From positions 88,066-152,065 of the forward strand of contig CAZSQN010000002.1 in the NCBI GenBank assembly GCA_964609095.1: a stretch of 64,000 nucleotides of DNA, given 5' to 3'. Positions 33,335 to 61,900 of this stretch are shown here, piece by piece. The stretch's first letter is position 1, and the number at the start of each line of letters is the position of its first letter. This DNA is from an uncultured Gammaproteobacteria bacterium. Lineage in GTDB: Bacteria > Patescibacteriota > Patescibacteriia > CAZSQN01. The notes under the pieces are model-generated. The model did not search any database. It was not told the DNA's origin and saw only the letters and a program-made list of their open reading frames with translations. The translations under genes were made by a program, and so were the position numbers.

Positions 33335-33398
33335 TTAGCGTTTAGCGATTAGCGTATAGCGTTTAGTTTCCTAAACCCTAAACGCTAAACCCTACACC
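33335..33398. repeat. Paired heptamer blocks: (TAGCGNT)x4 … (CTAAACN)x4
   Basis: tagcgtt tagcgat tagcgta tagcgtt … ctaaacc ctaaacg ctaaacc ctacacc; the second block overlaps the last codons of the dehydrogenase ORF. Confidence 0.75.
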
Positions 33399-34283: not shown

Positions 34284-36197
34284 TTAAGGCAAATACGGCT
34301 TTAATCTCTGAAGCGCCGCTCTAAAGCCCTCATAATTATTCAAATGCCCCTCCCAAATCTCCGGCGTCCATGAGAACGTCTGATTCTTCAAGATATCAAA
34401 TACCTTGCCGAATTCTATTTCTCCTTCGCCGATATTCACTGCTTCCACCGTAATCCCCGAAGCGTCGGCAATATGAATATGGTCGGTTATCGGCGCGACG
34501 GTTCTCACGTAATCCAGATAATCTTTTCCCGCAAAATTACAATACAATTTGGAGTGCGCCGTGTCAAAGCACATTTTGAGCCCGAGGCCGCGGCAAAATT
34601 GAACCATTTCTTCCGCGTCCATAAAAACCTTGTGAAACCATTGGCCGGCAAAATACCAGGCGAACGGAGGCAGGTTTTCAGGCAGGAGCGTGATACCGTC
34701 ATAAGAAAGGCGGCTTATGGCCTCATGCGCCCGCTCCAAAAGCAATTTGCCGTCCATCGGCTTCTGGTCCATAACCATACCGCCGGTATGAATGACGTAT
34801 TTGGGCGCGCCGGAAAAATAAGGCGCGAGCTGGCGCGTCAAATCCAAAGATTTTTGAATGAATTTAATTGACCTGTTCCATTCTTCGTCATCCAACGAAC
34901 AAAGGTCATTCATCCGCCTTTGCCAGTAATCGGGAGCGTGGATTACCAGCATTTGGTCGTATTTTCTCTTCGGCTCCCATCCCTCTTCCACATCGCGGTC
35001 GGTCAAATGAAACTCAAAAAACTTGGGATTAAAAAGCGCGGCAAAATCCGCCTCGTGAAAACGGGTCTTTAAACCCCACAAGGATTTATAATCATAATGT
35101 TCGGGCTTAAAATTTTCCCCGCGAAGGTCCGCCTCGGTAAAAAGATCGTCTTTGGGTATGTCGCGCAAGGCCTTGACTCCGACCAGTTCATAAATCTTCT
35201 GCGGAGAAAGGCCTTTTGCCGGACCTTTGACCGTAATCATTTCTTTGGTTATTTCCGTTCCCTTTTTAATATCCGCTGCCGCGACCAAGCTTTTGCCAAG
35301 CACTTTCCTATTCATTATCTCGCCGTGGCTGCGCACTTTGGACGGAGCGCCAAGCGCCTTTTCAATTTCCCTTATACTTTTTACCATCTGACTAAATTCT
35401 TCCGGTTCCAAACTTGCCAGATGATCCGGGCCTTCGTCATGGCGGTTTAAAGTAATATGCCGCTCAACAATGCACGCGCCGCGCGCCACGGCCGCAAGCG
35501 ACGGGTTCATCCCCCGCTCATGACCGGAATATCCGACAGGCACGCCAAAAAGCTCGCGAAGCTTGTCAATAAACAAAAGGTTTAAATCCTCAATGGGAGC
35601 GGGATAAACCCCGACGCAATGAAGAAGCGCGAAGTTCACTCCGAGTTTTTGAAGAAACTCCACGGAATTTTTTGTTTCCAAAATGGTTGAAAGCCCGGTT
35701 GAGGCGATAACCGGCTTAGAGGTCGCGGCAATCCGTTCCAGCAAAGGGAAGTTGGTAAGGTCGCAAGAAGCGATTTTATAAAAATCAACATTAAGTTTTT
35801 CAAGAAAATCAACGCTCGGAATGTCAAAAGGCGTGCATAAAAACTGCGCGCCCTTGGCCTCCGTGTATTCTTTCAGCTCCTTCATCTGCTCAAAGCTCAA
35901 ATCGCATTCGCGGTAAATCGGCAGAATATAGCTAAAGCTCTGTTCGCCCAAGTTTGGGTTTTCCAGCAATTTTTTCTGGTACAATGTCTCAAGATCGCGT
36001 TTTTGAAACTTTACGACATCGGCGCCGGCAGCTACGGCGGCGGAAACGAGTTCTTTGGCGCGCGAAAAACTGCCGTTATAATTTATGCCGATTTCGGCAA
36101 TGATCATAACCGGCTTTCCTTGCCCGACTTCAAATTTCCCCAATCTAATATTTTTGGGCATATTAAACAAGTTTATCATAAAAACCGCGCCTGTCAA
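34284..36197 (-). CDS. Fusion protein: NeuB-family nonulosonic-acid synthase (with SAF domain) fused to a xylose-isomerase-like TIM-barrel domain
   Basis: N-terminal …PVMIIAEIGINYNGSFSRAKELV…GADVVKFQ…; central SAF-like …LVAAADIKKGTEITKEMI…; the C-terminal 280 aa carry TIM-barrel metal-site motifs (…VIHAP…CFDTAH…HIHIADA…EIWEGH…). Confidence 0.7.
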   Translation of the reverse strand: MTGAVFMINLFNMPKNIRLGKFEVGQGKPVMIIAEIGINYNGSFSRAKELVSAAVAAGADVVKFQKRDLETLYQKKLLENPNLGEQSFSYILPIYRECDLSFEQMKELKEYTEAKGAQFLCTPFDIPSVDFLEKLNVDFYKIASCDLTNFPLLERIAATSKPVIASTGLSTILETKNSVEFLQKLGVNFALLHCVGVYPAPIEDLNLLFIDKLRELFGVPVGYSGHERGMNPSLAAVARGACIVERHITLNRHDEGPDHLASLEPEEFSQMVKSIREIEKALGAPSKVRSHGEIMNRKVLGKSLVAAADIKKGTEITKEMITVKGPAKGLSPQKIYELVGVKALRDIPKDDLFTEADLRGENFKPEHYDYKSLWGLKTRFHEADFAALFNPKFFEFHLTDRDVEEGWEPKRKYDQMLVIHAPDYWQRRMNDLCSLDDEEWNRSIKFIQKSLDLTRQLAPYFSGAPKYVIHTGGMVMDQKPMDGKLLLERAHEAISRLSYDGITLLPENLPPFAWYFAGQWFHKVFMDAEEMVQFCRGLGLKMCFDTAHSKLYCNFAGKDYLDYVRTVAPITDHIHIADASGITVEAVNIGEGEIEFGKVFDILKNQTFSWTPEIWEGHLNNYEGFRAALQRLKPYLP

Positions 36198-36210
36198 TTC
36201 TTTCTCTCTC

Positions 36211-37254
36211 TTAATCCGCCTTCAACGAAACGCGTTTGCCATCCCTCCACGATTCCATCGCGGCAAAGCTCGCTTCCAATGTCTTAAGCGCGTCAGCGCC
36301 GTCAATAACGGGCTTGCCGCCGCGGCAAAGAAGCTCCAAAAAATGCCATATTTCCTCCACAAACATATCATTTCTGTTCATTTCCGAAGGATATGTCTCC
36401 GTCCGTTTCGGTTCGGCATAATAAACATCAATCCTATTGGCAGACATATACGAATCCCAAAAAATTGACCCCTTCTCGCCGGTCACCCACATTTCCTTGC
36501 GCGGACGCCTGCCAAGCGCGTCAAGATGAATTGATGAAACAATCCCATTTTGGTGCAGGCAAATCAGTTTGGAGAGATCATCGGTATCCACCGTCACTTC
36601 GCCGACCCGCCCGACAAAAGCCATCACCTCTTTAACCTCGCCAAAAAGCCAGCGGGCAAAATCAATGGTGTGATTTTCATCCAAAAGCTCGCCGCCGCCA
36701 AGATTCTTATTGCCCATATACCATGCGCCGGGCTTCTCCCACGGGTGCCATCCGGGCAGCCATTCTGAAAAAGTAATCTCCGCCGCGAATATCTTGCCGA
36801 TGGCTCCGGCTTTAAGCAATTCTTCAATCTTTTTGAGCGAATCGGAAAAACGGTAAGTATAGCCGACAAAAACAAAACGTTTAGCCGCATCCGCGGCGCG
36901 CAAAAAATCAGCCACGCCTTCCAAGCGGTCGGAAATGGCTTTTTCCATCAAAATGTGAGCGCCGTGAGCCACGGCTTTATTGCCGCTGTCTATGTGGAAA
37001 GCGGTCGGATTGGCAATAATCACGCCGTCAAACTTGCCGTTGGCATAGGCCTCGTCTTCGGACGCGTATAAAACAACTTCGCCAAAACGTTCACGGAGCT
37101 CCGCCCGGCGGTCTTCGCGCGGCTCCACGACCGCGACATTACTAGCTCCAAGGCCAAGCAGATTTCCAAGATGCCTTTTGCCGATTGAGCCGCCGCCGAC
37201 AATTAAAATCTTTACCCGCTCAAGGAACTCGCGGGGAACGCGGGGATTTTCCAT
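36211..37254 (-). CDS. Gfo/Idh/MocA-family NAD(P)-dependent oxidoreductase
   Basis: …VKILIVGGGSIGKRHLGNL…; ORF-track start 37380 would overlap the next gene, so MENPRV at 37254 is preferred. Confidence 0.75.
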   Translation of the reverse strand: MENPRVPREFLERVKILIVGGGSIGKRHLGNLLGLGASNVAVVEPREDRRAELRERFGEVVLYASEDEAYANGKFDGVIIANPTAFHIDSGNKAVAHGAHILMEKAISDRLEGVADFLRAADAAKRFVFVGYTYRFSDSLKKIEELLKAGAIGKIFAAEITFSEWLPGWHPWEKPGAWYMGNKNLGGGELLDENHTIDFARWLFGEVKEVMAFVGRVGEVTVDTDDLSKLICLHQNGIVSSIHLDALGRRPRKEMWVTGEKGSIFWDSYMSANRIDVYYAEPKRTETYPSEMNRNDMFVEEIWHFLELLCRGGKPVIDGADALKTLEASFAAMESWRDGKRVSLKAD

Positions 37255-37312
37255 CCTGTTTTTCCATTTGTAGTAATCGCTATGTTCTACCCAGCCAATC
37301 ATAAAATAAAAA

Positions 37313-38059
37313 TTATTTTTCGCGCTCCAGCCGCTCGGCCATAAACTTTTCCGCCACGGCAAAGTCCTCCAAAGAATCAATGTTTACCGACTCTTCGGCC
37401 GGCATAACAAAACCAAAAATATTTTGTCCGCTCATAGAGTTCATTTCTAAAATCACTTCCGGCCTGATTACGTCAACCGAACCGTTCTGCGCAAAAACCG
37501 GCATTTTGTCCTGCAAAATTTGGCGGGCGCTATTGTAGGCCTCGGGCACTTCCGGATGCGTGAGGAGCGGAGTTAATCGCTCGCCTTCCAAACGCCACAT
37601 TTTAAGCGGATGCTTTGGCGTTGGCGTGACTGAACGGACGGAATGAGCCTCGGGGTGTTCCAAAAACATTTTAACGCCGAAATCAATGTGTTCGGCGCGG
37701 CGAAGCGGAGCAGTCGGCCGCAGCTGCACCACCGCGTCGGGCTTATAATTTTCTTTTTCTTCCAAATACCGCAGGGCGTGCTGCATCACCGGCAAATCCA
37801 AGGTCCGGTCAGCGGCCAATTCTTTGGGGCGCATAAACGGCGCTTCCGCGCCGTATTCTGCCGCGACTTTGGCAATTTCCTCATCATCGGTGGAAATAAT
37901 TATCCGATTTATGTATTTTGATTTTTTCGCCTCCAAAACCGTCCAGGCCAAAAGCGGTTTGCCGGAGAGCATTCTGATATTCTTGCGCGGCACGCCTTTG
38001 CTGCCGCCGCGCGCCATCAGCACGCACAAAATCTTCAGATTTTGATTATTTTGTTCCAT
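37313..38059 (-). CDS. CMP-nonulosonic acid synthetase (acylneuraminate cytidylyltransferase family)
   Basis: …ILCVLMARGGSKGVPRKNIRMLSGKPLLAWTV…. Confidence 0.8.
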   Translation of the reverse strand: MEQNNQNLKILCVLMARGGSKGVPRKNIRMLSGKPLLAWTVLEAKKSKYINRIIISTDDEEIAKVAAEYGAEAPFMRPKELAADRTLDLPVMQHALRYLEEKENYKPDAVVQLRPTAPLRRAEHIDFGVKMFLEHPEAHSVRSVTPTPKHPLKMWRLEGERLTPLLTHPEVPEAYNSARQILQDKMPVFAQNGSVDVIRPEVILEMNSMSGQNIFGFVMPAEESVNIDSLEDFAVAEKFMAERLEREK

Positions 38060-38064
38060 AAAAA

Positions 38065-39060
38065 TTATTTTTTAGGATGCGCGGCATACCATTCATAAGT
38101 TCTGCGCAATCCTTCTTCCAGCATTACTTCCGGCCTCCAGCCGACCAGCGCTTGCAGCTTTGATATGTCCGCCCGGCGGCGCGCCACGCTTCCGGGAAGC
38201 GAATCTTTAATGTCAATCGTCTTTGGCTTCCAGCCGGAGAGGTCAAAAAACTTTTCGGCAAGCTCACGCATGGCGATTTCTTCCGCATCGCCTATATGCA
38301 CGGTTAAAACCGGTTGAAGGTCGGTTTTGGAAGAATCCATCAGCATTTGCATCGCGCGTACCGCATCGTCAATATAGCAAAAAGTGCGCGTTTCTTCCGC
38401 GCCCAATATGGTAAACGGATCTTCCCTCTTGGCTATTTTAATAGAAAACTCCGGAATCACATGGTCATAACCGGCGCGCGGCCCGTAAAAATTATGAGGC
38501 CGGACAATCAGCGCGCGGAAATTATGCATTTTGGCATAATGAATGACAAAAAGTTCGCCGATTAGCTTGGTGGCGGCGTAAGACCACCGCGGATTATAAG
38601 GATCGTTGATAACAAGCGGCACCTCTTCCGGAGTGGGAATCGGCAATTGATTAAAGGCGCTAAGAGCGCCGGCATAGGCCTCGTTGGAGGAAGTAAAACA
38701 AAACTTTCCTTTTGGATTTTCTCTCCCAAACCATTCCAGCATATAGATAAGCGACAACGTATTGACGCGCAAAACCTCATGCGGCATGGAATAAAACAGC
38801 TTCGTGCCGTTTACCGCCGCCAAATGATAAACATGGTCATAGCCGCTGCCGAGTTTCGCATATGAGGCAGAATCGGTTAAATCCAGATTTAAAAAATTTA
38901 TCCTTTTGTCGCGAAGCAGATTTTCAAAATCATCATCCATTTTCCCGCGCTGAAGATTGTCAATCAACGTCAAACGCGCCCCCTCGCCGTACGCGGCGAG
39001 AAGATGCGACGCTAAATGATAACCGATAAATCCCGCTCCGCCAGTAATTAAAATTTTCAT
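38065..39060 (-). CDS. NAD-dependent epimerase/dehydratase (extended SDR)
   Basis: MKILITGGAGFIGYHLASHLL…; the ORF-track N-extension overlaps the next gene, so the start at 39060 is preferred. Confidence 0.75.
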   Translation of the reverse strand: MKILITGGAGFIGYHLASHLLAAYGEGARLTLIDNLQRGKMDDDFENLLRDKRINFLNLDLTDSASYAKLGSGYDHVYHLAAVNGTKLFYSMPHEVLRVNTLSLIYMLEWFGRENPKGKFCFTSSNEAYAGALSAFNQLPIPTPEEVPLVINDPYNPRWSYAATKLIGELFVIHYAKMHNFRALIVRPHNFYGPRAGYDHVIPEFSIKIAKREDPFTILGAEETRTFCYIDDAVRAMQMLMDSSKTDLQPVLTVHIGDAEEIAMRELAEKFFDLSGWKPKTIDIKDSLPGSVARRRADISKLQALVGWRPEVMLEEGLRRTYEWYAAHPKK

Positions 39061-39061
39061 A

Positions 39062-40429
39062 TCAAAGATGGCTGGGCAAACCGGGAATGTTGTCGTAGCC
39101 CAGATTGCTGTAATGAATATCGGCAAATTTGGCAATTCTATCGGCGCCGTACAATTTCCATCCGTCAAAAATCAACGCTGGTTTTTTCATCAGCGGCAGA
39201 TAACGGTGAATGTCCAGATTTTTAAAATCGTGGTGGTTGGTGGCAAGAATGGCCGCGTCCGCGCCGCGAAATCCTTCTTCAAGATTAACGAATTTGAGGC
39301 CGTAGGGAGACAGCGCCTCCGACGGCACAACCGGGTCATAGCCGCAAACGTTAAAATTTTTCTCTTGCAATTTTTTGGCAATTTCCAATCCGGACGAAAA
39401 TCTGATGTCGGAAGTCGGCGGATGCCCCTTAAAAGCCAGTCCGGCAATAAATATCTTTGAGTCCCGCGCGCTTTTGCGGCTGGCTTCCATAAATCTGCTT
39501 ACCTGCCGGCAGACATAATCAGGCATCGCCTCATTTACGGCGCGGGCTTGCGTAATCAGTTTCGGCTCAAACCCTTTAGCCAGCGACGCCTCCAGCAAGA
39601 TATACGGGTCTTTGGTTAAGCAATAACCGCCCACTCCCGGGCTTGGCTGCGGCACAGCGCTGCGCTCATAACCGAAGTTGGCCGCGCTTATGACTTCGTG
39701 CGAATCAAGATTAAATTTATCGCAAATAAGCGCCACCTCATTGGCAAAAGCAAAAGTCACATCGCGATAAAGATTATTAACCAATTTAACCATCTCTGCC
39801 GCCTCAAGCGTGGGCAAAAGCACAATTTTGTTGGTTAAAGTCCGGAAAATATCCGCGCATAGCGCCGCGCTTGCCCTGTCATAGCCGCCGATGACCTGCG
39901 GCAGGCGCCTCAACTCGTTTAGGGCGTCGCCCTCTATGGTGCGTTCCGGCGCAAAAGCAATTGAAAAATCCTTGCCCGCCGCCAAACCGGAATATTTAAC
40001 AAGCAAGGGAATAACAAAATCGCGCGTTGTGCCCGGCGGAACGGTTGACCTTAAAATCACTATATCGCCTTGGCGCAGAACCTTGGCAATGGAGATAATG
40101 GATGATTCCAAGTCATTAAAATCCGGCTTCTTGCTCTCTCCCAGTAGCGGCGTGCCCACAGCCACAATATAAATACCGGCAATGGATTCCGAAAACGCGG
40201 TCAAAAATTTAAAACCCTTGCCCAGCTCTTGGCTTAAAAGCTCATTAACGCCGCCCTCGTGAAAATGGCTCTTGCCTTCTTCAAGCTGGCTCACCACCCG
40301 TTCGCGCTTTTCAATGCCGGTTACGGAAAAACCAAGTTCAGAAAGCGTCAAAGCCAAAGTCAAGCCCACATAGCCCATGCCGATAACGCAAACTTTTTTT
40401 TCAAAAATTAAATCATTGCCGGTAGCCAT
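39062..40429 (-). CDS. Nucleotide-sugar dehydrogenase (UDP-glucose/UDP-ManNAc 6-dehydrogenase family)
   Basis: …KKVCVIGMGYVGLTLALTLSELGFSV…; full length with C-terminal domain. Confidence 0.8.
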   Translation of the reverse strand: MATGNDLIFEKKVCVIGMGYVGLTLALTLSELGFSVTGIEKRERVVSQLEEGKSHFHEGGVNELLSQELGKGFKFLTAFSESIAGIYIVAVGTPLLGESKKPDFNDLESSIISIAKVLRQGDIVILRSTVPPGTTRDFVIPLLVKYSGLAAGKDFSIAFAPERTIEGDALNELRRLPQVIGGYDRASAALCADIFRTLTNKIVLLPTLEAAEMVKLVNNLYRDVTFAFANEVALICDKFNLDSHEVISAANFGYERSAVPQPSPGVGGYCLTKDPYILLEASLAKGFEPKLITQARAVNEAMPDYVCRQVSRFMEASRKSARDSKIFIAGLAFKGHPPTSDIRFSSGLEIAKKLQEKNFNVCGYDPVVPSEALSPYGLKFVNLEEGFRGADAAILATNHHDFKNLDIHRYLPLMKKPALIFDGWKLYGADRIAKFADIHYSNLGYDNIPGLPSHL

Positions 40430-40436
40430 AATCATT

Positions 40437-41498: not shown

Positions 41499-41696
41499 AA
41501 ATGTTTCAATTAGTGGAGTATAACCCGAAGGTTCAATTTTGGCAATATACCTAAAAATGGCTAAAATTAGCCATCTTGCCTACCTACCCCCTTGCGCTAA
41601 ATGACAAGGCGTGCTAATCTGCCCTTTCAAGCGCATTGCTTGATGCTCCGCGGCGGAGAACGCCGAAAACCGCACCTTAAAAATGGAGGTTAGCCA

Positions 41697-41996
41697 ATGC
41701 CTCTGTGGCACATCTGCTTGATTTCTTTTCATCAAGACGCGCCTGAATCAGTGAGACGGGAAATCTACGACCGCTATCAAACCCTGGACGCGGACTGCGG
41801 CGGGGCTGGCGCGGGCATCCTCTTTTGGAAAGTTGCGTGGAATCTTGATTTGCGGAAAAACATCCACCTGGTGGAAATCTCCGTGTTTACGAATAACGAC
41901 GCCCTGCAGAGATTCCGGCGGCATCCCAAGCATATGGAACTCACCGACATTTTGAGAGAAATTGCCGACTGGCAAGTCGGCGATATTCACCAATAA
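41697..41996 (+). CDS. Small Dabb-type (stress-responsive alpha/beta-barrel) protein
   Basis: About 100 aa; …HICLISF…HLVEISVF…HPKH…; RBS tggagg; the only plus-strand gene in a 30-kb minus-strand array. Confidence 0.45.
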   Translation: MPLWHICLISFHQDAPESVRREIYDRYQTLDADCGGAGAGILFWKVAWNLDLRKNIHLVEISVFTNNDALQRFRRHPKHMELTDILREIADWQVGDIHQ

Positions 41997-42015
41997 ATTC
42001 TTTAGAATAGCCAAA

Positions 42016-42046
42016 GAGCGGAAGAAATTCCGCTCTTTTTCATTTG
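42016..42046 (+). terminator. Intrinsic terminator after the Dabb-like gene
   Basis: agagcgga-agaaatt-ccgctct followed by ttttcattt. Confidence 0.65.
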
Positions 42047-42056
42047 GCAGTTTTAG

Positions 42057-42770
42057 TTATTTTTTATTCTTATGCGATAGATACGCTTCAATCAATTCCA
42101 AATCCTCTTTGTAATCTATATCCATTGAATAAATCGGCGGGACTACTATGGGATAATTCCTCTTGCCTTCCAGGCGGCCGCTGCCCAAAAGCGTTTCGCG
42201 GCTGGTAAGCCAGAGATTGGCCGCGTGATAAAATTTTGGTTTGGATTTGCCGATATCCTGATAATGAAGCTCCTCCTGCCAAAAACCGATCGTTCCATCC
42301 TCGTTCATTTTGCGCACATTGTAAGGGTGATTGATAGTATCAACCAAAGAAACTGTTACAACCGAATCGGCTTTCTTCTCCAGCGCCAAAGCAATGGCGG
42401 CTTCTATCTGTTCTGAAGCAATCAAGGGCGTAGCCGCCTGCAAAAGTATGGAATAATCAACGCGATAATTCTCTTTTTCTTCCAATTGTTCCACCGTATA
42501 TTTAATCGCCTCTATAACCGGGCTTATGTCCCCCGCCAAATCCGCCGGACGCATAAAAGGCACTTCGGCGCCGCAATCTTTAGCCGCCGCGGCTATTTTG
42601 TCATCATCGGTTGAAACAATTACCCTATCAACCGATTTCGCGCCAAGGGCGGCGGAGATTGGATAAGAAATCAGCGGTTTGCCCAAAAGAGGATAGACAT
42701 TTTTTCCGGGAAATCTTTTACTGCCGCCCCGCGCCGGAATCAAAACCACGAAATTATCTGAATAAGTCAT
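42057..42770 (-). CDS. Second CMP-nonulosonic/KDO-type cytidylyltransferase
   Basis: …VVLIPARGGSKRFPGKNVYPLLGKPLISYPI…. Confidence 0.8.
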   Translation of the reverse strand: MTYSDNFVVLIPARGGSKRFPGKNVYPLLGKPLISYPISAALGAKSVDRVIVSTDDDKIAAAAKDCGAEVPFMRPADLAGDISPVIEAIKYTVEQLEEKENYRVDYSILLQAATPLIASEQIEAAIALALEKKADSVVTVSLVDTINHPYNVRKMNEDGTIGFWQEELHYQDIGKSKPKFYHAANLWLTSRETLLGSGRLEGKRNYPIVVPPIYSMDIDYKEDLELIEAYLSHKNKK

Positions 42771-43500
42771 AAAATGTTTTGACGCTTAAAACGGAAATCA
42801 GCACGGAAACGATAATCATCGTATGCCGGGGAGGCATTCTCTTGCAAACGTAAGCCGCGAACGGAGCAGCCAGCACGCCTCCAATGAGCAGCCCCGCCAC
42901 CACCTGCCAATGAGTTATGCCGACTATCGGCGTAAGAATGACAACGATGGTCAGGGAAACAAAAAATTCAACGGCGTTTGTTGAACCAACGGCAAAACGC
43001 GGATTATTTCCGCGCGCCGTAAGCGTGCTTCCAACTATCGGCCCCCAGCCGCCGCCTCCGACCGCGTCCAAAAACCCGCCCAAAAAACCAATAGGGGCGA
43101 TTTTAGTATGCACCGGCTTGGTTTTAATAATTTTAAAGGCCTTATAAAGAATAAAAAGGCCCATGCAAAAAAGATAAACAGTGACGGCAAATTTCAAAAA
43201 TCTGCCGGAAACCAAGGTTAGGACCACCGCTCCGAAAGCTCCTCCGGCCATTCCGGGAACCAGCAATTTTTTAAATAACTGTTTGTCTATGTTTTTAAAT
43301 TTAAAATGCGAAATAGCCGAAACAAAGGTGGTGAATATCTCGGCAAAATGCACGCTGGCGCTGGTAATGGCCGGCGGCGTACCCATAGCCAAAAGCAAAG
43401 AGCTCGCGCTAATGCCGTAAGCCATGCCTAGGGCGCCATCAATCATCTGCGCGGCAAAACCCACGATAATAAAAAAGATTAAATCATTTTCTAAAATCAT
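42754..43500 (-). CDS. TauE/SafE-family (DUF81) sulfite/sulfonate permease
   Basis: Two repeated halves with Gly-rich …GGGGWGPIVGSTL… motifs; 7-8 TM. Confidence 0.75.
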   Translation of the reverse strand: MILENDLIFFIIVGFAAQMIDGALGMAYGISASSLLLAMGTPPAITSASVHFAEIFTTFVSAISHFKFKNIDKQLFKKLLVPGMAGGAFGAVVLTLVSGRFLKFAVTVYLFCMGLFILYKAFKIIKTKPVHTKIAPIGFLGGFLDAVGGGGWGPIVGSTLTARGNNPRFAVGSTNAVEFFVSLTIVVILTPIVGITHWQVVAGLLIGGVLAAPFAAYVCKRMPPRHTMIIVSVLISVLSVKTFYDLFR

Positions 43501-43515
43501 GAACGCGGATTGAAT

Positions 43516-44514
43516 TTATTTTTCAGCAAAGAACCGCAATTTTAGGCCGATGCCGAGTTCGTTCATTTTCTGTTCAAGCATCGCCACATTGTCTTTATTA
43601 GCCAAAAACTCGCGGAATTTGTCCGGAAAATATTTATTTTCTTCGTCTCCAAACGGGTCTAAAAACTGCAAATGATTAAAAATTGAATCTTTCCCGGAAT
43701 AAACCGTGTCAATCTCGCACCTATTGAATCCGGCGGTTTTAAATAACCGCTCCAGAGTGCGGCCGGAAAAATAATTCAAATGGTTCCTGCCGGTAAAAGT
43801 TCTGGCCGTTCCGTGCAAAATCATATAAGCCAAGCTTTCCACATTGGGACATCGTCCCAAAAAGATTCCTCCCGGTTTTAAAATCCTGACGATTTCTTTC
43901 ATCACGGCAAGCGGCTGGGGCAAGTGCTCTATCACGCCAAACATTGACACCGCGTCAAAACTGTTGTCGGGAAACTTGCAATCCTCAAGGAGCTTCCGCT
44001 CCACCTTAACGCCGTACATTTCCTCGGCGTAAGACGCTGTTTTTTCGTTTAATTCCAAGCCAACCGTGTCATAACCCAAGTCCTTGCCGGCTTTCAGAAA
44101 AAGGCCGATGGAACATCCGATATCCAGAACTTTGCCTCCCGCGGGTATTTTTGTTTTAAGCTTATCGTAATACGTCTTATAAAGCTCAATATCGGTCCTC
44201 TGCTGTTCCGATGAGAGAACGACCTTCATAAAGGTCTCATGCGAAGGAACATCCTCATTGTAATATTTTAATATGGCTTTTTCTTTTAACTGCGGGTTGA
44301 CGTAAACAAAAGTGCAATTTCCGCATCTAACGAAATCAAAGCCGTTTTTGACAAAAAGATGGTCAAAAAGCGGCGAAGCGCAAATCCGGCAATTTATTTT
44401 CTCCGTCAATTCAGAACGGACTTTGCCGGTTTGCGGATCTATAAGCTCTTCCAATTCCTTATCTCTATAGAAAAAAAATTCGTTCCTATGCGTCGCCTTG
44501 TCAAAATTGCTCAT
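43516..44514 (-). CDS. Class I SAM-dependent methyltransferase with N-terminal Zn-ribbon
   Basis: CRIC…CGNC; motif I VLDIGCSIGLF. Confidence 0.8.
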   Translation of the reverse strand: MSNFDKATHRNEFFFYRDKELEELIDPQTGKVRSELTEKINCRICASPLFDHLFVKNGFDFVRCGNCTFVYVNPQLKEKAILKYYNEDVPSHETFMKVVLSSEQQRTDIELYKTYYDKLKTKIPAGGKVLDIGCSIGLFLKAGKDLGYDTVGLELNEKTASYAEEMYGVKVERKLLEDCKFPDNSFDAVSMFGVIEHLPQPLAVMKEIVRILKPGGIFLGRCPNVESLAYMILHGTARTFTGRNHLNYFSGRTLERLFKTAGFNRCEIDTVYSGKDSIFNHLQFLDPFGDEENKYFPDKFREFLANKDNVAMLEQKMNELGIGLKLRFFAEK

Positions 44515-44534
44515 ATAAATTATTCTATTTACCC

Positions 44535-44607
44535 CGTTAGAAAGACCCTCCTAAATAAATCCAACGAACCCGCTTGTCATAAATTTATAGAATGGACTTT
44601 CTAACGG
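44535..44607. repeat. 14-bp perfect inverted repeat pair separated by 45 bp
   Basis: accccgttagaaag … ctttctaacggggt. Confidence 0.7.
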
Positions 44608-44628
44608 GGTTTAATTAAAATCTTAAAT

Positions 44629-45801
44629 TTAATTTTGCCGCCATTTAATCTTTGGCAAAATAACGGATTTGTCAATTAAACGTTCGGCGTTTTTAATCTT
44701 CACAAGCATGGAATTGACCAGTTCTTCAGAAAGTTTCGTGGGGACAAGGCCTAATCCCAAAAGCTTATCATTCTTCGGATTGTAATAATGCTCTTCTTTT
44801 TCTATGCGGGGATTTTCCAAATGCTCTATCTTAACGTCTATGCCCAGTTTTGCCGCGGCGCGGGCAACCGTTTCGGCCAATTCCATAATGGAAAACACTT
44901 CCGTAAATTGGTTAAAAACCCTGAATTCGCCCGGGGCACCTGGATTTAAGACGGCGAGTTCCACGCATTGCAAGGTGTCGCGGATATTTAAAAATCCGCG
45001 CTTTTGGCCGCCCTTGCCATAAACCGTTAAAGGCATTCCGGCGACCGCCTGCACGCAAAATCTGTTCAAAGCGGTTCCAAAGACATCGTCATAATGAAAA
45101 CTCGTCCTTAAATCATCATGCAAGTTTATTTCTTCCGTTTCCAGCCCATAAACAACTCCCTGGTTCAAATCAGTCGCCTTAAGTCCCCAGACGCGGCAGG
45201 CAAATTCTATATTGTGGCTGTCATGAACTTTGCTCAAATGATAAAAAGAGCCCGGCTGCTTGGGAAAAGGCAGCCGGTCGCTTCTGCCTTTATGGTTTAT
45301 TTCTATATGGCCTTCTTCAATATCTATATTTGGCGTTCCGTATTCGCCCATTGTTCCCAGCTTTACCAAATGAGCGTCAGGCAAAGAATGCCGCATGGCA
45401 AAAAGCACGTTTAAAGTGCCGATGACATTATTTTTTTGGGTCAAAACGGCATTGTGCCTGGAGCGCATTGAGTATGGCGCCGACGGCTGTTCCGCGTAAT
45501 GCACAATGGCGTCGGGACGAAACTCTTCCATTACCCTGTAGATAAAACGGACATCTTCGGCAATATCTCCGACATAGAGCTTGATATCGCCTCTGGCAAC
45601 GGTTTTCCAGGTCGCCATGCGCGCCGGCAAAAGCGGTATTGGGTAAAGAGGCGCGACCCCAACTTGCGCTTCCCAGGCGCGCTTAATCATATTGTCCACC
45701 ACGGCGACCTCGTGCCCGAGACGCGAAAAATGCATGGCCGTAGGCCAGCCCAGGTAACCATCGCCTCCCAATATAAGGATACGCAATTTTTTGTCGCTCA
45801 T
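44629..45801 (-). CDS. sqdB: UDP-sulfoquinovose synthase (SQD1/SqdB/Agl3-like)
   Basis: Long collinear match to the SQD1 signature: ILGGDGYLGWPTAMH…VHYAEQPSAPYSM…LTQKNNVIGTLNVLFA…LVKLGTMGEYGTPNIDIEEGHIEI…LPFPKQPGSFYHLSKVHDSHNIEFACRVWGLKATDLNQGVVYG…ALNRFCVQA; the ORF-track N-extension is probably not real. Confidence 0.85.
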   Translation of the reverse strand: MSDKKLRILILGGDGYLGWPTAMHFSRLGHEVAVVDNMIKRAWEAQVGVAPLYPIPLLPARMATWKTVARGDIKLYVGDIAEDVRFIYRVMEEFRPDAIVHYAEQPSAPYSMRSRHNAVLTQKNNVIGTLNVLFAMRHSLPDAHLVKLGTMGEYGTPNIDIEEGHIEINHKGRSDRLPFPKQPGSFYHLSKVHDSHNIEFACRVWGLKATDLNQGVVYGLETEEINLHDDLRTSFHYDDVFGTALNRFCVQAVAGMPLTVYGKGGQKRGFLNIRDTLQCVELAVLNPGAPGEFRVFNQFTEVFSIMELAETVARAAAKLGIDVKIEHLENPRIEKEEHYYNPKNDKLLGLGLVPTKLSEELVNSMLVKIKNAERLIDKSVILPKIKWRQN

Positions 45802-45817
45802 TTTAGTGGAATGAAAA

Positions 45818-46504
45818 TTATAAACGGGTATGCAGACCGCATTCGCCTCCCAGATTCTGCGTGCCCGTAAATCGTCCGGCGCGCTCAAACTGCCCTTGGC
45901 GGCCTCCGCCTTCGCGCACCTTGCCGCCGGTAGTGCAGGGCTTGCAGCCCAGCGACAAATAACCATGGTCATAGAGCGGATGGTACCGGAGATTATTTTC
46001 TTTTATGTACTGCCAAACATCGTCTTTGGTCCAGAAAGCAATGGGGTTTATTTTGGCGATTTTGCCGGCCTCAACAATGGGCGTATTTTTGCGATACTCG
46101 GTTTCGTCGCGGCGCAAACCGGTAATCCAGGCGTCAAAGCGCGGCAAGGCGCTCTCAATGGCCGGAATCTTCATCTCGCAGCATTTATATTGGTCGTTCT
46201 TGATGAACGAGTCCCCATATTGTTCGTCTATCCGCTTAATGTCTTCCGAACCGGGATGCAGCCATTCAAAATTTAATTTCAATTCTTCAACCAAAGAATT
46301 GCCGTAAGACAATGTTTCTTCAAATTCATAACCGGTATCAATGCCCAAAAAACATAAATCGGGTTTGGCCTTGGTGGCCAAATCCACGATGACCCGCGAA
46401 TCCTTGCCAAAAGAGCAGGCGGCAAAAATGCGCGGATAGGCCTTGACCGCCAGTTTAATTATAGTTTGGGAGAGATCGGCTTTTTCTTTTAGAGTCAAAT
46501 TCAT
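45818..46504 (-). CDS. cysH: Phosphoadenylyl-/adenylyl-sulfate reductase (CysH family, Fe-S type)
   Basis: P-loop-like ACSFGKDSRVIVDLA; Cys pairs KCCEMK and CKPC; C-terminal ECGLH. Confidence 0.85.
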   Translation of the reverse strand: MNLTLKEKADLSQTIIKLAVKAYPRIFAACSFGKDSRVIVDLATKAKPDLCFLGIDTGYEFEETLSYGNSLVEELKLNFEWLHPGSEDIKRIDEQYGDSFIKNDQYKCCEMKIPAIESALPRFDAWITGLRRDETEYRKNTPIVEAGKIAKINPIAFWTKDDVWQYIKENNLRYHPLYDHGYLSLGCKPCTTGGKVREGGGRQGQFERAGRFTGTQNLGGECGLHTRL

Positions 46505-46508
46505 ACTT

Positions 46509-47684
46509 TTAAATCAATTTTTTTCTTAAAAGCTTCTCGTCTAAAGAGATTTTTTTTAGAACGGCGACAATCTTTTCCGCGGCCCGACCGTCTCCCAGGC
46601 GATAACCGCATTTTCTAAGTTTACCCGCAAAACTCTTATCTTCTAAAACATATTTGAGCGCGCCAATGATGGATTTTGTTTTGCCGTCGGAATCAACGAT
46701 ATTCTCTTCCCTGTCTCTGCCTTCTTGCCGCCTGCCGACGTTAACCGCCCCAAGATGCAAATAAGGCGCTTCAACAAAAGCGCAGGAAGAATTGCCGACA
46801 AGCGCGCCCGCGCCGGCAAGCAGCCCTAAAAAATCAAGATTATCTATGTTTTTCCGCACCAAAAATTGCGGGTCGTCGGAAATTTCCGAAATCGCGGAGA
46901 GCACGCCGTCGTATCCCGGATCGGAACAAGGATAAATAACAAGGGAACGGCCGCCAAAACTTTTAACCGCGGCAAATATATTGCGCGCCGCCCGGTAATT
47001 GCCCGCGCTTGTTAAATACGTATCCGGATGGTAAATGACGATAAAAAAATCTTCGCTTGGCCGCAGCCCGTATTTTGGCTTAACCAAACTTGTATCAGCA
47101 TACATTTGCTTGACGATCCTGTCAATGTAAAGCGAGCCAACCGGCTTTATGCGCCAGGCCTCTTCGCCCAAACGGCGAAGGCGGCCCGCGGCAACGGTTG
47201 TCTCCGGAAAATGAAAATGCGCCAATTTGGCAATAACATGCCTTTGCACATCGTCAATATTGCCGGATATCTCCCCGCCCTGCGTATGGAAAACCGGGAT
47301 TCCCAAATTCAAGGCCGCAAACCCGACCATCAAATGTTCTCCCCTGTCGGCATGGACCATAACAATATCCGGTTTCATTTTTTTAAGAGCCGAAGCCGCC
47401 TTTTGCTCGCAAACGCCAAGATTGCGCGCGCGGGAGAGCGATGAGTCGTCGCCTCCGGTGCCCATATCAATAAGCGTTATTTTGGAACGGGGAAAAAACT
47501 TTTTCACCTCATTTGCCGTAGCTCCGAACTCCTTTGAAGCGTGCATATCGCCGAGAAGCCACTGGAGTTCCAGCGACGGGTCGCTGTCAATCAGTTTCGC
47601 CAAAGGAAAATACGCTCCGAAACCGCCCCGCTTGCCGGAGAAAAGACAGATTTTTCTTTTTTGGACAGTTGTAGCACGGGACAT
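46509..47684 (-). CDS. UDP-N-acetylglucosamine 2-epimerase (NeuC/LegG-type, probably hydrolysing)
   Basis: …VHADRGEHLMVGFAALNLGIPVFHTQGGEISGNIDDVQRHVIAKLAHFHF…. Confidence 0.8.
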   Translation of the reverse strand: MSRATTVQKRKICLFSGKRGGFGAYFPLAKLIDSDPSLELQWLLGDMHASKEFGATANEVKKFFPRSKITLIDMGTGGDDSSLSRARNLGVCEQKAASALKKMKPDIVMVHADRGEHLMVGFAALNLGIPVFHTQGGEISGNIDDVQRHVIAKLAHFHFPETTVAAGRLRRLGEEAWRIKPVGSLYIDRIVKQMYADTSLVKPKYGLRPSEDFFIVIYHPDTYLTSAGNYRAARNIFAAVKSFGGRSLVIYPCSDPGYDGVLSAISEISDDPQFLVRKNIDNLDFLGLLAGAGALVGNSSCAFVEAPYLHLGAVNVGRRQEGRDREENIVDSDGKTKSIIGALKYVLEDKSFAGKLRKCGYRLGDGRAAEKIVAVLKKISLDEKLLRKKLI

Positions 47685-47686
47685 AC

Positions 47687-58750: not shown

Positions 58751-58761
58751 AAAATAAAAAA

Positions 58762-59493: not shown

Positions 59494-59497
59494 ATGT

Positions 59498-60778: not shown

Positions 60779-60795
60779 AATTTGCCGAATGAAAT

Positions 60796-61896: not shown

Positions 61897-61900
61897 AAAA

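Follow-up and report, generated by a model that had tools for sequence, protein, structure and literature searches.

The DNA analysed here, a stretch of 64,000 nucleotides (the window), carries two conserved gene modules for sialic-acid-like sugars. Our preferred reading, to which we give a probability of roughly 0.58, is that the modules are independent, that each would supply its own CMP-activated nonulosonic sugar for a surface glycan of Candidatus Uhrbacteria, and that the product of module A would be sulfonated as proposed below. Module A (42057-49051, plus the synthase NeuB2 at 40437-41498) contains genes for a TagB-like transferase, a NeuC-type epimerase, CysH, an SQD1-type synthase, a methyltransferase, a TauE-family permease, the cytidylyltransferase CT2 and NeuB2. 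Module B (34284-38059, perhaps to 40444) contains the cytidylyltransferase CT1, a GFO-type oxidoreductase, and NeuB1, a NeuB fused to a ketose-3-epimerase-like TIM barrel. All genes named in the original prediction were real minus-strand ORFs at the coordinates it gave, and every feature described below lies on that strand unless noted. Several public gene calls start later than the longest ORF (NeuB1 at 36161, GFO at 37302, SDR at 39060, dehydrogenase at 40444 and the SQD1-like gene at 45786). Our literature searches turned up no description of either module.

The two NeuB-family synthases (predicted at 34284-36197 and 40437-41498) were confirmed by Pfam NeuB with E = 9e-82 and 8e-68, and the two cytidylyltransferases (37313-38059 and 42057-42770) by CTP_transf_3 with E = 5e-21 and 6.5e-27. 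The synthases are 38% identical to each other and the cytidylyltransferases 32%. Other phyla have separate orthologues of each copy (49–73% identical), set in a conserved gene neighbourhood particular to that copy. This supports the earlier proposal of two different sialic-acid-like pathways. NeuB1 and NeuB2 are just 30–36% identical to N. meningitidis NeuB, C. jejuni PseI and B. subtilis SpsE. Both keep the catalytic residues of the N. meningitidis enzyme, with the exception of Arg314 in the NeuB1 fusion family. Judged by sequence, both cytidylyltransferases are NeuA-like and not KdsB-like, as they matched CMP-Neu5Ac synthetases in the PDB at E = 1e-30 to 4e-33, compared to 1e-4 to 5e-10 for KdsB (CT1, 4e-33 with 6IFD vs ~1e-4; CT2, best match 6IFD at 1e-29 vs 5e-10).

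It had been suggested that the locus encodes a canonical legionaminic- or pseudaminic-type pathway, completed by an aminotransferase and an acetyltransferase further downstream, together with a second nonulosonic or Kdo-like sugar. The two downstream genes exist (a DegT aminotransferase at 57638-58750, with PseC as its best match at 270 bits, and a hexapeptide transferase at 58762-59493, matching the NeuD/PglB family at 116 bits), and some NeuB2 orthologues are labelled N,N'-diacetyllegionaminate synthase in the automatic annotation of JGI. However, both of these scores are under their cut-offs, and the pair lies 9–16 kb from the synthases within a separate acyl-ACP cassette (57.6-59.5 kb, with ACP, an acyl ligase, LuxE and LuxC) and accompanies neither module in other genomes. 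Neither synthase reached the PseI or NeuB/NnaB equivalog cut-off, and their 31–33% identity to C. jejuni PseI compares to 45–47% for true PseI-clade loci in the same scans. Neither the window nor the ~6.8 kb past its end (L004) yielded an equivalog of PseB, PglF or a LegB-type 4,6-dehydratase, or a PseG. Nor are the cytidylyltransferases KdsB-like, and we consider this combination very improbable. The duplicated genes could also be redundant paralogs of a single pathway, given that both NeuBs scored higher with the NeuB/NnaB model than with the PseI model and that the PseF model was the best match of both cytidylyltransferases. This is scarcely credible in view of the low identity within each pair, the closer orthologues of each copy in other phyla with distinct conserved neighbours, and the differences between the synthases in domain architecture and at the Arg314 site; the orthogroup analysis contradicts it.

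In module B, NeuB1 (34284-36161) combines NeuB and SAF domains with a xylose-isomerase-like TIM barrel (Pfam AP_endonuc_2), an architecture found in at least 120 full-length homologue clusters from many phyla. The AF2 model of the C-terminal domain (pLDDT 95) had ketose 3-epimerases as its best folds, with a metal-ligand pattern of four invariant residues (E131, D169, H172, E237) and a nearly invariant H199. Throughout the fusion family, the position of Arg314, an essential residue of N. meningitidis NeuB, holds Gly or Ser. The oxidoreductase (36211-37302; Pfam GFO_IDH_MocA) best matched 3Q2K and 3Q2I (E = 4e-20), which we take to be WlbA-type nucleotide-sugar 3-dehydrogenases, and also 6O15 (YjhC) and 6Z3B/6Z3C (~1e-11), presumably sialic-acid oxidoreductases. 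It adjoins the fusion synthase in L073, L074, L075 and L078, and the cytidylyltransferases beside the fusion synthases of these loci are 45–52% identical to CT1, just 29–39% to CT2. CT1, the oxidoreductase and the fusion synthase are 38–53% identical to their counterparts in the Elusimicrobia locus L074 and in L075, where the oxidoreductase gene is split by a frameshift; the CPR loci L073 and L078 have an analogous set of cytidylyltransferase, NeuB::Cupin_2 and GFO.

Two neighbouring genes have looser ties to module B. Of the two extended SDRs originally predicted, one, SDR_B (38065-39060; Pfam Epimerase), was upheld, with a dTDP-glucose dehydratase-like protein, UDP-glucuronate decarboxylase and 4-epimerases as its nearest structures (~100 bits); the other (44629-45786) proved to be the SQD1-type homologue of module A. 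An SDR_B orthologue (50% identical) adjoins the fusion gene in L074, associating SDR_B with module B in some genomes. The predicted nucleotide-sugar dehydrogenase (39062-40471; called at 39062-40444) was recovered as a nucleotide-sugar 6-dehydrogenase by TIGR03026 (379 bits) and is closest to UDP-ManNAc dehydrogenases (270 bits with the archaeal UDP-ManNAc dehydrogenase model). It is tied to module B only loosely: L074 has an orthologue (45% identity) at a distance of 6 kb from the fusion gene, and there is no conservation in L075. Together, CT1, the oxidoreductase and the fused NeuB would give a second, different CMP-ulosonic acid. The fused TIM domain, either ketose-3-epimerase-like or isomerase-like, probably prepares the aldose for the synthase, and the product may be a Kdn-like sugar without an N-acetyl group.

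At the core of module A is a homologue of SQD1/SqdB-type UDP-sulfoquinovose synthases (44629-45786), 58% identical to Arabidopsis SQD1 (crystal structure 1QRR; 514 bits), which scored 478 bits with NF041015, under the equivalog cut-off of 575. Five positions excepted, it has the SQD1 signature (TMG plus YxxxK) and not the dehydratase acid/base pair. The motifs TMGEYG and YHLSK are retained, and EQRSAP is changed to EQPSAP, placing Pro where SQD1 has Arg101. The R101A mutant of Agl3 is inactive, making that Arg essential in Agl3 (PMC4388408). Thus, given also the score below cut-off, the substrate of the SQD1-like protein, and even its use of sulfite, could differ. The same Pro occurs in 77 of 103 representatives of the wider family and so is by itself no marker of the clade linked to nonulosonic acid genes. 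Next to this gene is cysH (45818-46504; NF002537, 183.6 bits, cut-off 154), encoding an assimilatory APS/PAPS reductase of the Fe-S APS-reductase type, with an ECGLH motif plus CC...CKPC cysteines. The SQD1-like gene of the Vogelbacteria locus L073 has a CysH orthologue (68% identity) at a distance of 31 bp, and that of L078 adjoins a CysD-CysN-CysH cassette; sulfate activation genes (Sat/CysDN) were not found within the window. A TauE/SafE-family anion permease (42754-43500; Pfam TauE, E = 5e-36), whose substrate is possibly sulfite or a sulfonate, is not conserved among related loci, where EamA transporters replace it in L078 and L079. The CysH and TauE genes, both in the set flanking the SQD1-like gene, were missing from the original prediction.

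The remaining genes of module A encode nonulosonic acid enzymes and possible accessory proteins. The predicted NeuC-type hydrolysing UDP-HexNAc 2-epimerase (46509-47684) scored 289.6 bits with TIGR03568 (NeuC_NnaA; cut-off 235.9), and CT2 is a NeuA-type CMP-nonulosonate synthetase. NeuB2, with NeuB and SAF domains, conserves E25, K53, Q55, K129, H215, E234, H236, D247 and R314 (N. meningitidis numbering). Its orthogroup, with at least 120 orthologue clusters at ≥53% identity, carries three group-specific Arg residues and the substitutions N29T, T155F, G245S and S251A at sites invariant in all other NeuBs examined. The SAM-dependent methyltransferase MT1 (43516-44514; Pfam Methyltransf_23/11) has orthologues (53–57% identity) adjoining the SQD1-like gene and CT2 in L073 and L079. 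GPT1 (47687-49051), a TagB/BFO_1060-like protein with a weak match to Pfam Glyphos_transf and 69 bits against the NF046086 BFO_1060 family (cut-off 200), is a candidate transferase for the module A sugar; GPT1-like ORFs occur within module A of L071, L073 and L007, and genetic evidence has established the BFO_1060 homologues Tanf_01245 and TFUB4_00887 as transferases of Pse/Leg derivatives (PMC5420450). Between CT2 and NeuB2 the gene row is split by a plus-strand Dabb-domain ORF (41697-41996; a called gene with Pfam Dabb in L001). Close by are a hairpin resembling a terminator (42013-42038) and a minus-strand promoter-like site (41545-41517).

The association of the SQD1-like gene with nonulosonic acid genes recurred across genomes. 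In 17 related loci (Patescibacteria including Vogelbacteria, Gaiellales, a Rhodospirillales MAG and unclassified contigs), members of an SQD1-like clade (63–85% identical to one another) lie beside NeuC and a cytidylyltransferase, and in most cases also beside a NeuB2 orthologue. All of these loci but the incomplete contig L023 (16 of 17) have a NeuC orthologue (44–64% identity) no farther than 10 kb from the SQD1-like gene. Among NeuB2-bearing loci (orthologue at ≥50% identity, enough flanking sequence) the SQD1-like gene was present in 10 of 11, compared to 0 of 20 loci with other NeuBs (Fisher p = 2.5e-7, which overstates independence owing to kinship among the Gaiellales loci); L079 was an eleventh positive locus. 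On the Saccharibacteria contig L005, with a NeuB2 orthologue at 60% identity, neither an SQD1-like gene nor a cytidylyltransferase was found in the 2.9 kb upstream. Conversely, NeuC and a NeuA-type cytidylyltransferase were within 8–10 kb of all six close SQD1-like homologues sampled, as was a NeuB in four; no NeuB was found within that distance in L071 and L077. In 13 loci, with the identical L017/L018 pair counted as two, no more than 75 bp separate the SQD1-like gene from the start of the cytidylyltransferase, which in most related loci is closer to CT2 than to CT1, with about equal scores in L078. Gene orders are interleaved: NeuC-SQD1-CT in L071 and L078, SQD1-CT-dehydrogenase-NeuB in Gaiellales and SQD1-NeuB in L072. 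No nonulosonic acid genes were found near homologues of the Arg101 type in the two contexts examined, the sqdB-glycosyltransferase operon of S. meliloti and a Pseudonocardia plasmid gene.

Since module A is built around a sulfoquinovose-synthase-type enzyme, its product is probably a sialic-acid-like sugar with a carbon-bound sulfonate, and we infer that it is best read as a CMP-activated 9-deoxy-9-sulfo nonulosonic acid. CysH would reduce APS to sulfite, which the SQD1-type enzyme would add to C6 of a UDP-hexose (UDP-GlcNAc or UDP-Glc) to give a UDP-6-deoxy-6-sulfo sugar. The NeuC-type enzyme would then remove UDP and invert C2, and NeuB2 would condense the free 6-sulfo-manno sugar with PEP to the 9-deoxy-9-sulfo nonulosonic acid, to be activated by CT2, methylated at some stage by MT1 and transferred onto the glycan by the TagB-like protein. 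Legionaminic acid synthesis follows the same logic (C6 change on a nucleotide sugar, hydrolytic 2-epimerisation, PEP condensation, CMP activation), except that a 4,6-dehydratase stands where module A has the sulfonating enzyme.

Alternatively, the SQD1-like enzyme may make UDP-sulfoquinovose for a glycosyltransferase, and NeuC, NeuB2 and CT2 an unsulfonated Neu5Ac-like sugar of the same glycan; two sugars of one glycan would likewise give the adjacency in module A. To our knowledge, NeuC-family enzymes act on 2-acetamido substrates only and SQD1-type enzymes use UDP-glucose, so that the sulfonated pathway requires one of them to accept a substrate without precedent, and the identity to SQD1 with intact catalytic motifs makes UDP-glucose the default substrate. 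The locus also has many glycosyltransferases, and protein-linked glycans of Sulfolobus contain sulfoquinovose made via Agl3 (PMC8987622). We nevertheless regard two separate sugars as possible but rather unlikely, because the interleaving of the SQD1-like gene with nonulosonic acid genes holds for all loci examined, which span several phyla and otherwise differ, and no SqdX, SQD2 or SqdD-type transferase is among the conserved neighbours. Moreover, a near-constant SQD1-like partner and substitutions at otherwise invariant sites are not expected of a plain Neu5Ac synthase such as NeuB2 would then be. A 4,6- or 5,6-dehydratase role without sulfite, leading to a 9-deoxy nonulosonic acid, would fit the Pro at the essential Arg, the NCBIfam score below cut-off, and the formation of UDP-glucose-5,6-ene by Agl3 when sulfite is absent (PMC8987622). 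We give it little credence given the SQD1 signature, the CysH gene directly beside the SQD1-like gene in the window and in L073, the full sulfite cassette in L078 and the TauE-family permease. If the product of module A is indeed the sulfonated nonulosonic acid proposed here, such C-sulfonated sialic-acid-like sugars would be a class not yet described.

Two sets of nonulosonic-acid genes, both on the minus strand, were distinguished within the glycan-biosynthesis locus. Module A comprised genes for a TagB-like protein (47687-49051), a NeuC-type epimerase (46509-47684), CysH (45818-46504), an SQD1-like enzyme (44629-45786), a methyltransferase (MT1; 43516-44514), a TauE-family permease (42754-43500), a NeuA-type cytidylyltransferase (CT2; 42057-42770) and the synthase NeuB2 (40437-41498). 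Module B comprised a second NeuA-type cytidylyltransferase (CT1; 37313-38059), a GFO/IDH/MocA oxidoreductase (GFO; 36211-37302) and the synthase fusion NeuB1 (34284-36161), perhaps together with an extended SDR (SDR_B; 38065-39060) and a dehydrogenase (39062-40444). We put at about even odds (a probability of roughly 0.5) the reading that module A is a widespread, undescribed route to a C9-sulfonated nonulosonic acid, present in CPR bacteria, soil Gaiellales and other lineages, and that module B, with a synthase-isomerase fusion at its centre, is another ulosonic-acid route not described before. The sulfonation branch is the most interesting feature of the locus and was overlooked in the original prediction, from which the CysH and TauE-family permease genes flanking the SQD1-like gene were absent.

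The original prediction had described two NeuB-family synthases, two CMP-sugar cytidylyltransferases and a NeuC-type epimerase serving two different sialic-acid-like sugars. All of the genes that it named were present where it had placed them (NeuB Pfam, E = 9e-82 and 8e-68; CTP_transf_3, 5e-21 and 6.5e-27), with PF02348 (CTP_transf_3) scores of 75.9 bits for CT1 and 95.2 bits for CT2 against a cut-off of 22.6, and the NeuC-type epimerase matched TIGR03568 over its full length with 289.6 bits (curated cut-off 235.9). The idea of two different sugars was supported, as the duplicates were not paralogs of one pathway: NeuB1 and NeuB2 were 38% identical, CT1 and CT2 32%, and each copy had its own orthologues elsewhere, which places them in two orthogroups. 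This assignment was based on pairwise identities, curated HMM cut-offs and orthologue neighbourhoods. Neither synthase reached the TIGR03569 NeuB/NnaB equivalog (NeuB1 347 bits, NeuB2 265.7; cut-off 399.65) or TIGR03586 PseI (258 and 216 bits; cut-off 340.25). Identity to N. meningitidis NeuB, C. jejuni PseI and B. subtilis SpsE was only 30-36% (35% for NeuB1 and 30% for NeuB2 in the case of N. meningitidis NeuB), and the 31-33% identity of NeuB1 and NeuB2 to C. jejuni PseI compared with 45-47% for genuine PseI-clade loci in the same scans. The possibility that the cytidylyltransferases belong with KdsB was also checked, and both matched CMP-Neu5Ac synthetases far better (PDB NeuA matches of 4e-33 for CT1 and 1e-29 for CT2, cf. 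1e-4 and 5e-10 for KdsB); both fell below the PseF equivalog cut-off of 205.7, with 146 and 147 bits. At other loci, cytidylyltransferases adjoining an SQD1-like gene mostly scored higher to CT2 (the one in L078, an unclassified MAG locus, scored about equally to both), and those adjoining a NeuB fusion were 45-52% identical to CT1 and 29-39% identical to CT2.

Residues E25, K53, Q55, K129, H215, E234, H236 and D247 (N. meningitidis numbering), which include the catalytic and metal residues, were kept in NeuB1 and NeuB2, so both synthases look active as far as their sequences allow. Compared to N. meningitidis NeuB, the 242-251 loop of NeuB2 was remodelled, and NeuB1 lacked Arg314 and carried an extra C-terminal domain. 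Arg314 lies in the SAF domain, and we take it to be essential in the N. meningitidis enzyme and to contact ManNAc (PDB 4IPI and 4IPJ presumably being its mutants). It was kept in nearly all other stand-alone NeuB/PseI homologues aligned; the site read KRP in NeuB2 and all of its orthologues, KGP in NeuB1, Gly or Ser in the fusion members related to NeuB1 that were examined, and other residues or no aligned residue in a second kind of fusion, with a cupin domain, described below.

As an example of the two sugars, a legionaminic- or pseudaminic-type product had been offered. No PseB, PglF or LegB equivalog and no PseG was found in the window or in the ~6.8 kb beyond its end, and the best matches to the LegB model reached 93-155 bits, below its cut-off of 475. 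The DegT aminotransferase and hexapeptide transferase at 57.6-59.5 kb scored below the PseC, LegC and NeuD-family cut-offs (DegT against the LegC model, 209 bits; cut-off 420) and accompanied neither module elsewhere, and no LegB/PglF-type dehydratase, LegC or LegH was conserved with either module in related loci. With these enzymes missing and the cassette unlinked to the modules, the legionaminic or pseudaminic example is unsupported. The two genes form part of an acyl cassette on the minus strand (57638-64000, and positions 1-10000 of L004, a segment that reaches ~6.8 kb beyond the window's end), which encodes a phosphopantetheinyl transferase, an 80-residue ACP-like protein, an AMP-binding ligase, Fe-ADH, LuxE, LuxC, a hexapeptide acyltransferase, the DegT aminotransferase and a 352-residue GFO oxidoreductase, and which looks like a set that would make a third sugar, an N-acylated amino sugar. 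Upstream of it are genes for an asparagine-synthase-like protein and a PMT_2 protein.

Two extended SDRs had been counted in the locus; SDR_B fits that description, and the other, at 44629-45786, is a homologue of SQD1-type UDP-sulfoquinovose synthases. It was 58% identical to Arabidopsis SQD1 over its full length (514 bits by phmmer) and scored 478 bits against the UDP-sulfoquinovose synthase model NF041015, below the cut-off of 575. The [ST]MG...Yx3K signature of UDP-sulfoquinovose synthases (PMC8987622, Table 1) was present as GTMGEYG and FYHLSK. The motif that reads EQRSAP in SQD1, S. meliloti SqdB and Sulfolobus Agl3, with Arg at residue 101, read EQPSAP in the window protein and in 119 of its 120 closest homologue clusters, the remaining one having Thr; the module A enzyme thus differs from Agl3 in having Pro where Arg is essential, the R101A mutant of Agl3 being inactive (PMC4388408). 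The idea that Pro101 marks the clade with nonulosonic-acid linkage was considered and rejected, since most of the family (77 of 103 representatives at 50% clustering) has Pro at this site. Its frequency makes it a trait of the subfamily; it does not prove that the substrate has changed. Residue 101 aligns with what we take to be a sugar-pocket wall residue of GalE and WbpP-type epimerases, presumably related to the accommodation of an N-acetyl group; a review of nucleotide-sugar dehydratases did not assign it to either wall of the active site. The linked clade was fully separated from Arg-type sequences by only five positions (L19M, R36K, D40E, R101P and D231H), and these do not decide between UDP-Glc and UDP-GlcNAc.

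A source of sulfite was encoded next to the SQD1-like gene. The CysH gene lies 31 bp upstream of it in the window, and its product exceeded the NF002537 cut-off (183.6 bits; cut-off 154) and carried the ECGLH and CC...CKPC motifs of the Fe-S APS-reductase type. In L073, a locus from Vogelbacteria, a 68% identical CysH was likewise encoded 31 bp from the SQD1-like gene. In L078 (MAG GCA_964648865.1, 9158-12802), genes for an NTP_transf_3 nucleotidyltransferase, CysD, CysN and CysH directly followed the SQD1-like gene and together give this nonulosonic-acid locus a full set for activating and reducing sulfate. Sulfur supply was encoded alongside the SQD1-like gene in these three loci. No sulfate-activation genes were found in the window itself, which counts against the proposal for module A.

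The linkage between these genes was examined from both ends. A scan with NeuB2 of one representative genome per species and a metagenome collection gave 64 loci, with which all window proteins were compared by tblastn. At loci with a NeuB2 orthologue (≥50% identity) and enough upstream sequence, the order was SQD1-like gene, CT2-like gene, usually a PGDH-like 2-hydroxyacid dehydrogenase gene, and NeuB2; the SQD1-like gene was 66-73% identical, the CT2-like gene started 27-75 bp downstream of it, and a NeuC orthologue (51-57% identical) was near. An SQD1-like gene was present at 10 of 11 NeuB2-orthologue loci relative to 0 of 20 loci with other NeuBs (Fisher p = 2.5e-7, in which independence is overstated as the Gaiellales loci are interrelated), and the single negative, L043, had an upstream sequence of only 991 bp. 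Starting from the SQD1-like protein, the 120 closest homologue clusters were all ≥66% identical, and six with long contigs were inspected: in Patescibacteria (L071, and L073 from Vogelbacteria), a Rhodospirillales MAG (L072) and unclassified contigs or MAGs (L076, L077 and L078). NeuC and a NeuA-type cytidylyltransferase were encoded within 8-10 kb in all six, and NeuB as well in four. A further Patescibacteria locus, L079, which was anchored on NeuB2, encoded NeuC, MT1 (57%), CT2 (66%), the SQD1-like enzyme (64%) and NeuB2 (64%). The SQD1-like proteins of linked loci were mutually 63-85% identical. As controls, two Arg101-type homologues were examined, in the S. meliloti sqdB-glycosyltransferase sulfolipid operon (L070) and on a Pseudonocardia plasmid, and no nonulosonic-acid genes were near either. 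Against the proposal, no NeuB was within reach in L071 or L077, and the Saccharibacteria contig L005 has a 60% identical NeuB2 orthologue, yet its 2.9 kb of upstream sequence holds neither an SQD1-like gene nor a cytidylyltransferase.

The NeuB2 orthogroup spanned at least 120 clusters and carried N29T, T155F, G245S and S251A, at positions invariant in every other NeuB aligned, together with three group-specific arginines. In lineages other than that of the window, module A has a conserved PGDH-like D-2-hydroxyacid dehydrogenase (L007 8868-9980, L010 8910-9980, L076 9892-10842, L072 3367-4323 and L077 9251-10213), which the window lacks; in one protein, P0482, a NeuB2 orthologue was fused to a 2-hydroxyacid dehydrogenase domain. 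SHMT and FolD genes come after module A in L071 and L077. In the Rhodospirillales MAG (L072, 12278-20815), the SQD1-like/NeuB pair occurs with HisF/HisH-like genes, MBOAT, B12-radical-SAM enzymes and an MptE-like (Maf-type) protein, a neighbourhood that suggests flagellin-type glycosylation using the same sugar.

Based on the interleaved genes, their mutual exclusivity and the remodelled synthase, we propose that four enzymes act in one pathway. CysH would reduce APS to sulfite, and the SQD1-like enzyme would combine sulfite with a UDP-hexose to give a UDP-6-deoxy-6-sulfo-hexose, from which NeuC would release a free 6-sulfo-manno sugar. NeuB2 would then condense this sugar with PEP to a 9-deoxy-9-sulfo nonulosonic acid and CT2 would convert it to the CMP-sugar, with MT1 adding a methyl group and the TagB-like protein transferring the sugar. 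The predicted product is CMP-activated 9-deoxy-9-sulfo-Neu5Ac or 9-deoxy-9-sulfo-Kdn. Known SQD1-type enzymes use UDP-glucose and NeuC-family enzymes are, to our knowledge, known only on 2-acetamido sugars, so one of the two would have a new substrate in module A. The NeuB family accepts 6-deoxy sugars (LegI and PseI) and 6-phospho sugars (animal Neu5Ac-9-P synthase and Kdn-9-P synthase), which by analogy makes a 6-sulfo substrate for NeuB2 plausible.

The scheme would copy the logic of legionaminic acid synthesis, in which an extended-SDR 4,6-dehydratase alters C6 before NeuC-family, NeuB-family and NeuA-type enzymes take over. The order of operations proposed for module A is that of the legionaminic pathway (LegB/PglF, LegC, LegH, LegG, LegI and LegF): the opening step is at C6 of a nucleotide hexosamine, where an extended-SDR enzyme works through oxidation at C4 and elimination across C5-C6, and the later steps fall to a hydrolysing 2-epimerase of the NeuC/LegG type, a synthase of the NeuB family and a NeuA-type CMP-transferase. 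It differs in that the C6 step is assigned to an SQD1-type, sulfite-adding enzyme rather than a 4,6-dehydratase, in that conserved module A has no C4 aminotransferase or N-acetyltransferase, and in that its synthase and cytidylyltransferase form separate orthogroups under the equivalog cut-offs. The Neu5Ac pathway of E. coli K1 and N. meningitidis (NeuC-NeuB-NeuA) uses the same three enzyme families, and the window NeuC passes the equivalog threshold. With plant SQD1, bacterial SqdB and Sulfolobus Agl3, the module A enzyme shares the TMG and YxxxK motifs, and its sulfite source is encoded nearby; the known members supply either sulfolipid synthesis (in S. meliloti, sqdB is paired with a glycosyltransferase gene) or an archaeal N-glycan, whereas the module A clade sits among NeuC, NeuB and NeuA-type genes.

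In module B, Pfam placed a NeuB-SAF synthase and a fused AP_endonuc_2 TIM barrel in NeuB1, an architecture found in at least 120 clusters at a full-length identity of ≥46%; fusions of this type named by NCBI came from Patescibacteria, Dehalococcoidia, Elusimicrobia, Nitrospinota, Acidobacteriota and Yanofskybacteria. An Elusimicrobia locus (L074) encoded the fusion (52% identical), SDR_B (50%), CT1 (50%) and GFO (46%), with the dehydrogenase (45%) 6 kb off, and L075 encoded CT1 (52%), the fusion (53%) and a frameshift-split GFO (43% and 38%). In the CPR loci L073 and L078, a cytidylyltransferase gene and a GFO gene accompanied a NeuB::Cupin_2 fusion (L073 13992-15563; L078 14647-16179), in which Cupin_2 takes the place of the TIM barrel; this is a non-homologous replacement of the fused domain. 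The L078 cupin domain had a faint D-lyxose-isomerase match, and the two kinds of fusion join two unrelated sugar-isomerase-type folds to the same kind of synthase. By sequence, the TIM domain of NeuB1 had no close characterised relative, only marginal matches. An AlphaFold (AF2) model of this domain, built on 50 homologues, had a pLDDT of 95, and its best Foldseek matches were D-psicose and D-tagatose 3-epimerases, L-ribulose 3-epimerase and UlaE (TM 0.62-0.70, 12-20% identity), with endonuclease IV close behind. E131, D169, H172 and E237 were invariant in the domain and H199 nearly so, a spacing that resembles what we take to be the Glu-Asp-His-Glu metal site of ketose 3-epimerases.

The nearest PDB entries to GFO were 3Q2K and 3Q2I, presumably WlbA-type nucleotide-sugar 3-dehydrogenases, and then 6O15 (YjhC) and 6Z3B/6Z3C, which we take to be sialic-acid oxidoreductases. 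Assigning a chemistry to SDR_B and GFO from their PDB matches was rejected, as the matches were too generic. The fused domain would deliver or epimerise an aldose for the NeuB1 synthase, and the product would be a second CMP-ulosonic acid, modified by the GFO enzyme. The conserved core of module B had neither NeuC nor an aminotransferase, and Kdn biosynthesis (Kdn or Kdn-9-phosphate synthase with CMP-Kdn synthetase), where a NeuB-family synthase likewise works without these enzymes ahead of a NeuA-type enzyme, is a possible analogue. No characterised Kdn synthase known to us carries a fused isomerase or epimerase domain or has a GFO oxidoreductase as its partner. A Kdn-like product, lacking the N-acetyl group, is a low-confidence assignment, at clearly less than even odds, which we infer only from the fused domains and the missing Arg314. 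The dehydrogenase, whose nearest relatives are UDP-ManNAc dehydrogenases, and SDR_B may instead make a uronic-acid sugar that belongs to this glycan; ManNAcA serves as nonulosonic-acid acceptor in T. forsythia (PMC5420450).

The glycan locus as a whole runs from ~20 kb to past the window's end. Its genes, nearly all of them on the minus strand, encode GT4 and GT2 glycosyltransferases, a Wzx-type flippase, four methyltransferases, a Bac_transf initiating transferase (30899-32356, plus strand), one radical-SAM/SPASM protein, three TagB-like proteins and the acyl-ACP cassette. Gene starts were taken from the public gene calls, several of which are later than the longest-ORF starts. The TagB/BFO_1060-like ORFs (TRANSFERASES; 47687-49051, 50957-52312 and 54783-56165, minus strand) each encode ~450 residues with a TagF-type domain. 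They matched part of the BFO_1060 model NF046086 with 69, 55 and 41 bits, below the cut-off of 200, which we read as resemblance only. Members of this family in Tannerella forsythia (Tanf_01245, TFUB4_00887 and BFO_1060) are required for the transfer of Pse or a Leg derivative (PMC5420450), and the window's ORFs likewise adjoin nonulosonic-acid genes. TagB-like ORFs were also found inside module A or B in L071, L073, L074, L075 and the Gaiellales loci. Between 47687 and 56165 (minus strand), they are interspersed with three methyltransferases, the radical-SAM/SPASM protein (52346-53356) and the Wzx flippase, with the fourth methyltransferase just beyond (56169-56831), which suggests that the glycan is heavily methylated and has several ulosonic-acid linkages. 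Between CT2 and NeuB2, a plus-strand ORF for a 99-residue Dabb (stress-responsive alpha/beta barrel) protein (41697-41996), a strong hairpin (42013-42038) and a promoter-like site (41545-41517) together suggest, from consensus matches only, two putative transcription units, one ending with CT2 and the next starting with NeuB2.

Several other features were observed around the modules. A UDP-glucose-dehydrogenase-like ORF (33378-34262, minus strand) lacks approximately the first 70 Rossmann residues and the entire C-terminal UDP-binding domain, and is probably what remains of a gene; it lies between NeuB1 and a TviC/GalE-like epimerase (32424-33329). Next to the glycan locus is a subtilase with FG-GAP repeats (27723-30014). 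Upstream of the locus, on the minus strand (823-2475 and 5877-10523), are genes for the CTP synthase PyrG and a dTDP-rhamnose set consisting of an RmlA-like gene, RmlD and RmlB, the last of which exceeds its equivalog cut-off, with a histidine phosphatase at 8003-8626. Four large ORFs in 11396-17181 and 20001-21080 (461, 542, 734 and 359 residues) had no Pfam match at E ≤ 1e-5. No tRNA genes or Rfam families were found in the window.

Full-text searches, in which journal coverage was incomplete and an earlier description is possible, returned no paper in which an SQD1-type enzyme is tied to the synthesis of nonulosonic acids; sqdB and neuB both appear in the H. walsbyi genome paper, but in unrelated contexts. 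A full-text search with the same incomplete coverage found no description of NeuB-isomerase fusions, and a literature search gave nothing relevant on MocA oxidoreductases in nonulosonic pathways or on nonulosonic acids in CPR bacteria. Both modules are made of known enzyme families within known nonulosonic-acid logic; the predicted product of module A, if confirmed, would be a new sugar class. Nonulosonic acids are major determinants of microbial surfaces, with roles in host mimicry, phage and immune recognition, and flagellin and S-layer glycosylation, and their known diversity lies in stereochemistry and in N- and O-substituents. A C-sulfonated nonulosonic acid, if true, would give SQD1-type C-S bond formation a second biological use in addition to sulfolipids and the Sulfolobus N-glycan, and would bring into the organosulfonate cycle of soils and groundwater a sink and source not recognised so far. 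Module A is broad, with at least 120 clusters each of NeuB2 and of close SQD1-like proteins, and the automatic labels "NAD-dependent epimerase/dehydratase", "N-acetylneuraminate synthase family" and "legionaminate synthase" conceal its pathway. That an uncultured CPR bacterium spends >45 kb on this glycan, with its own APS reductase embedded, bears on the surfaces by which episymbionts attach to their hosts.
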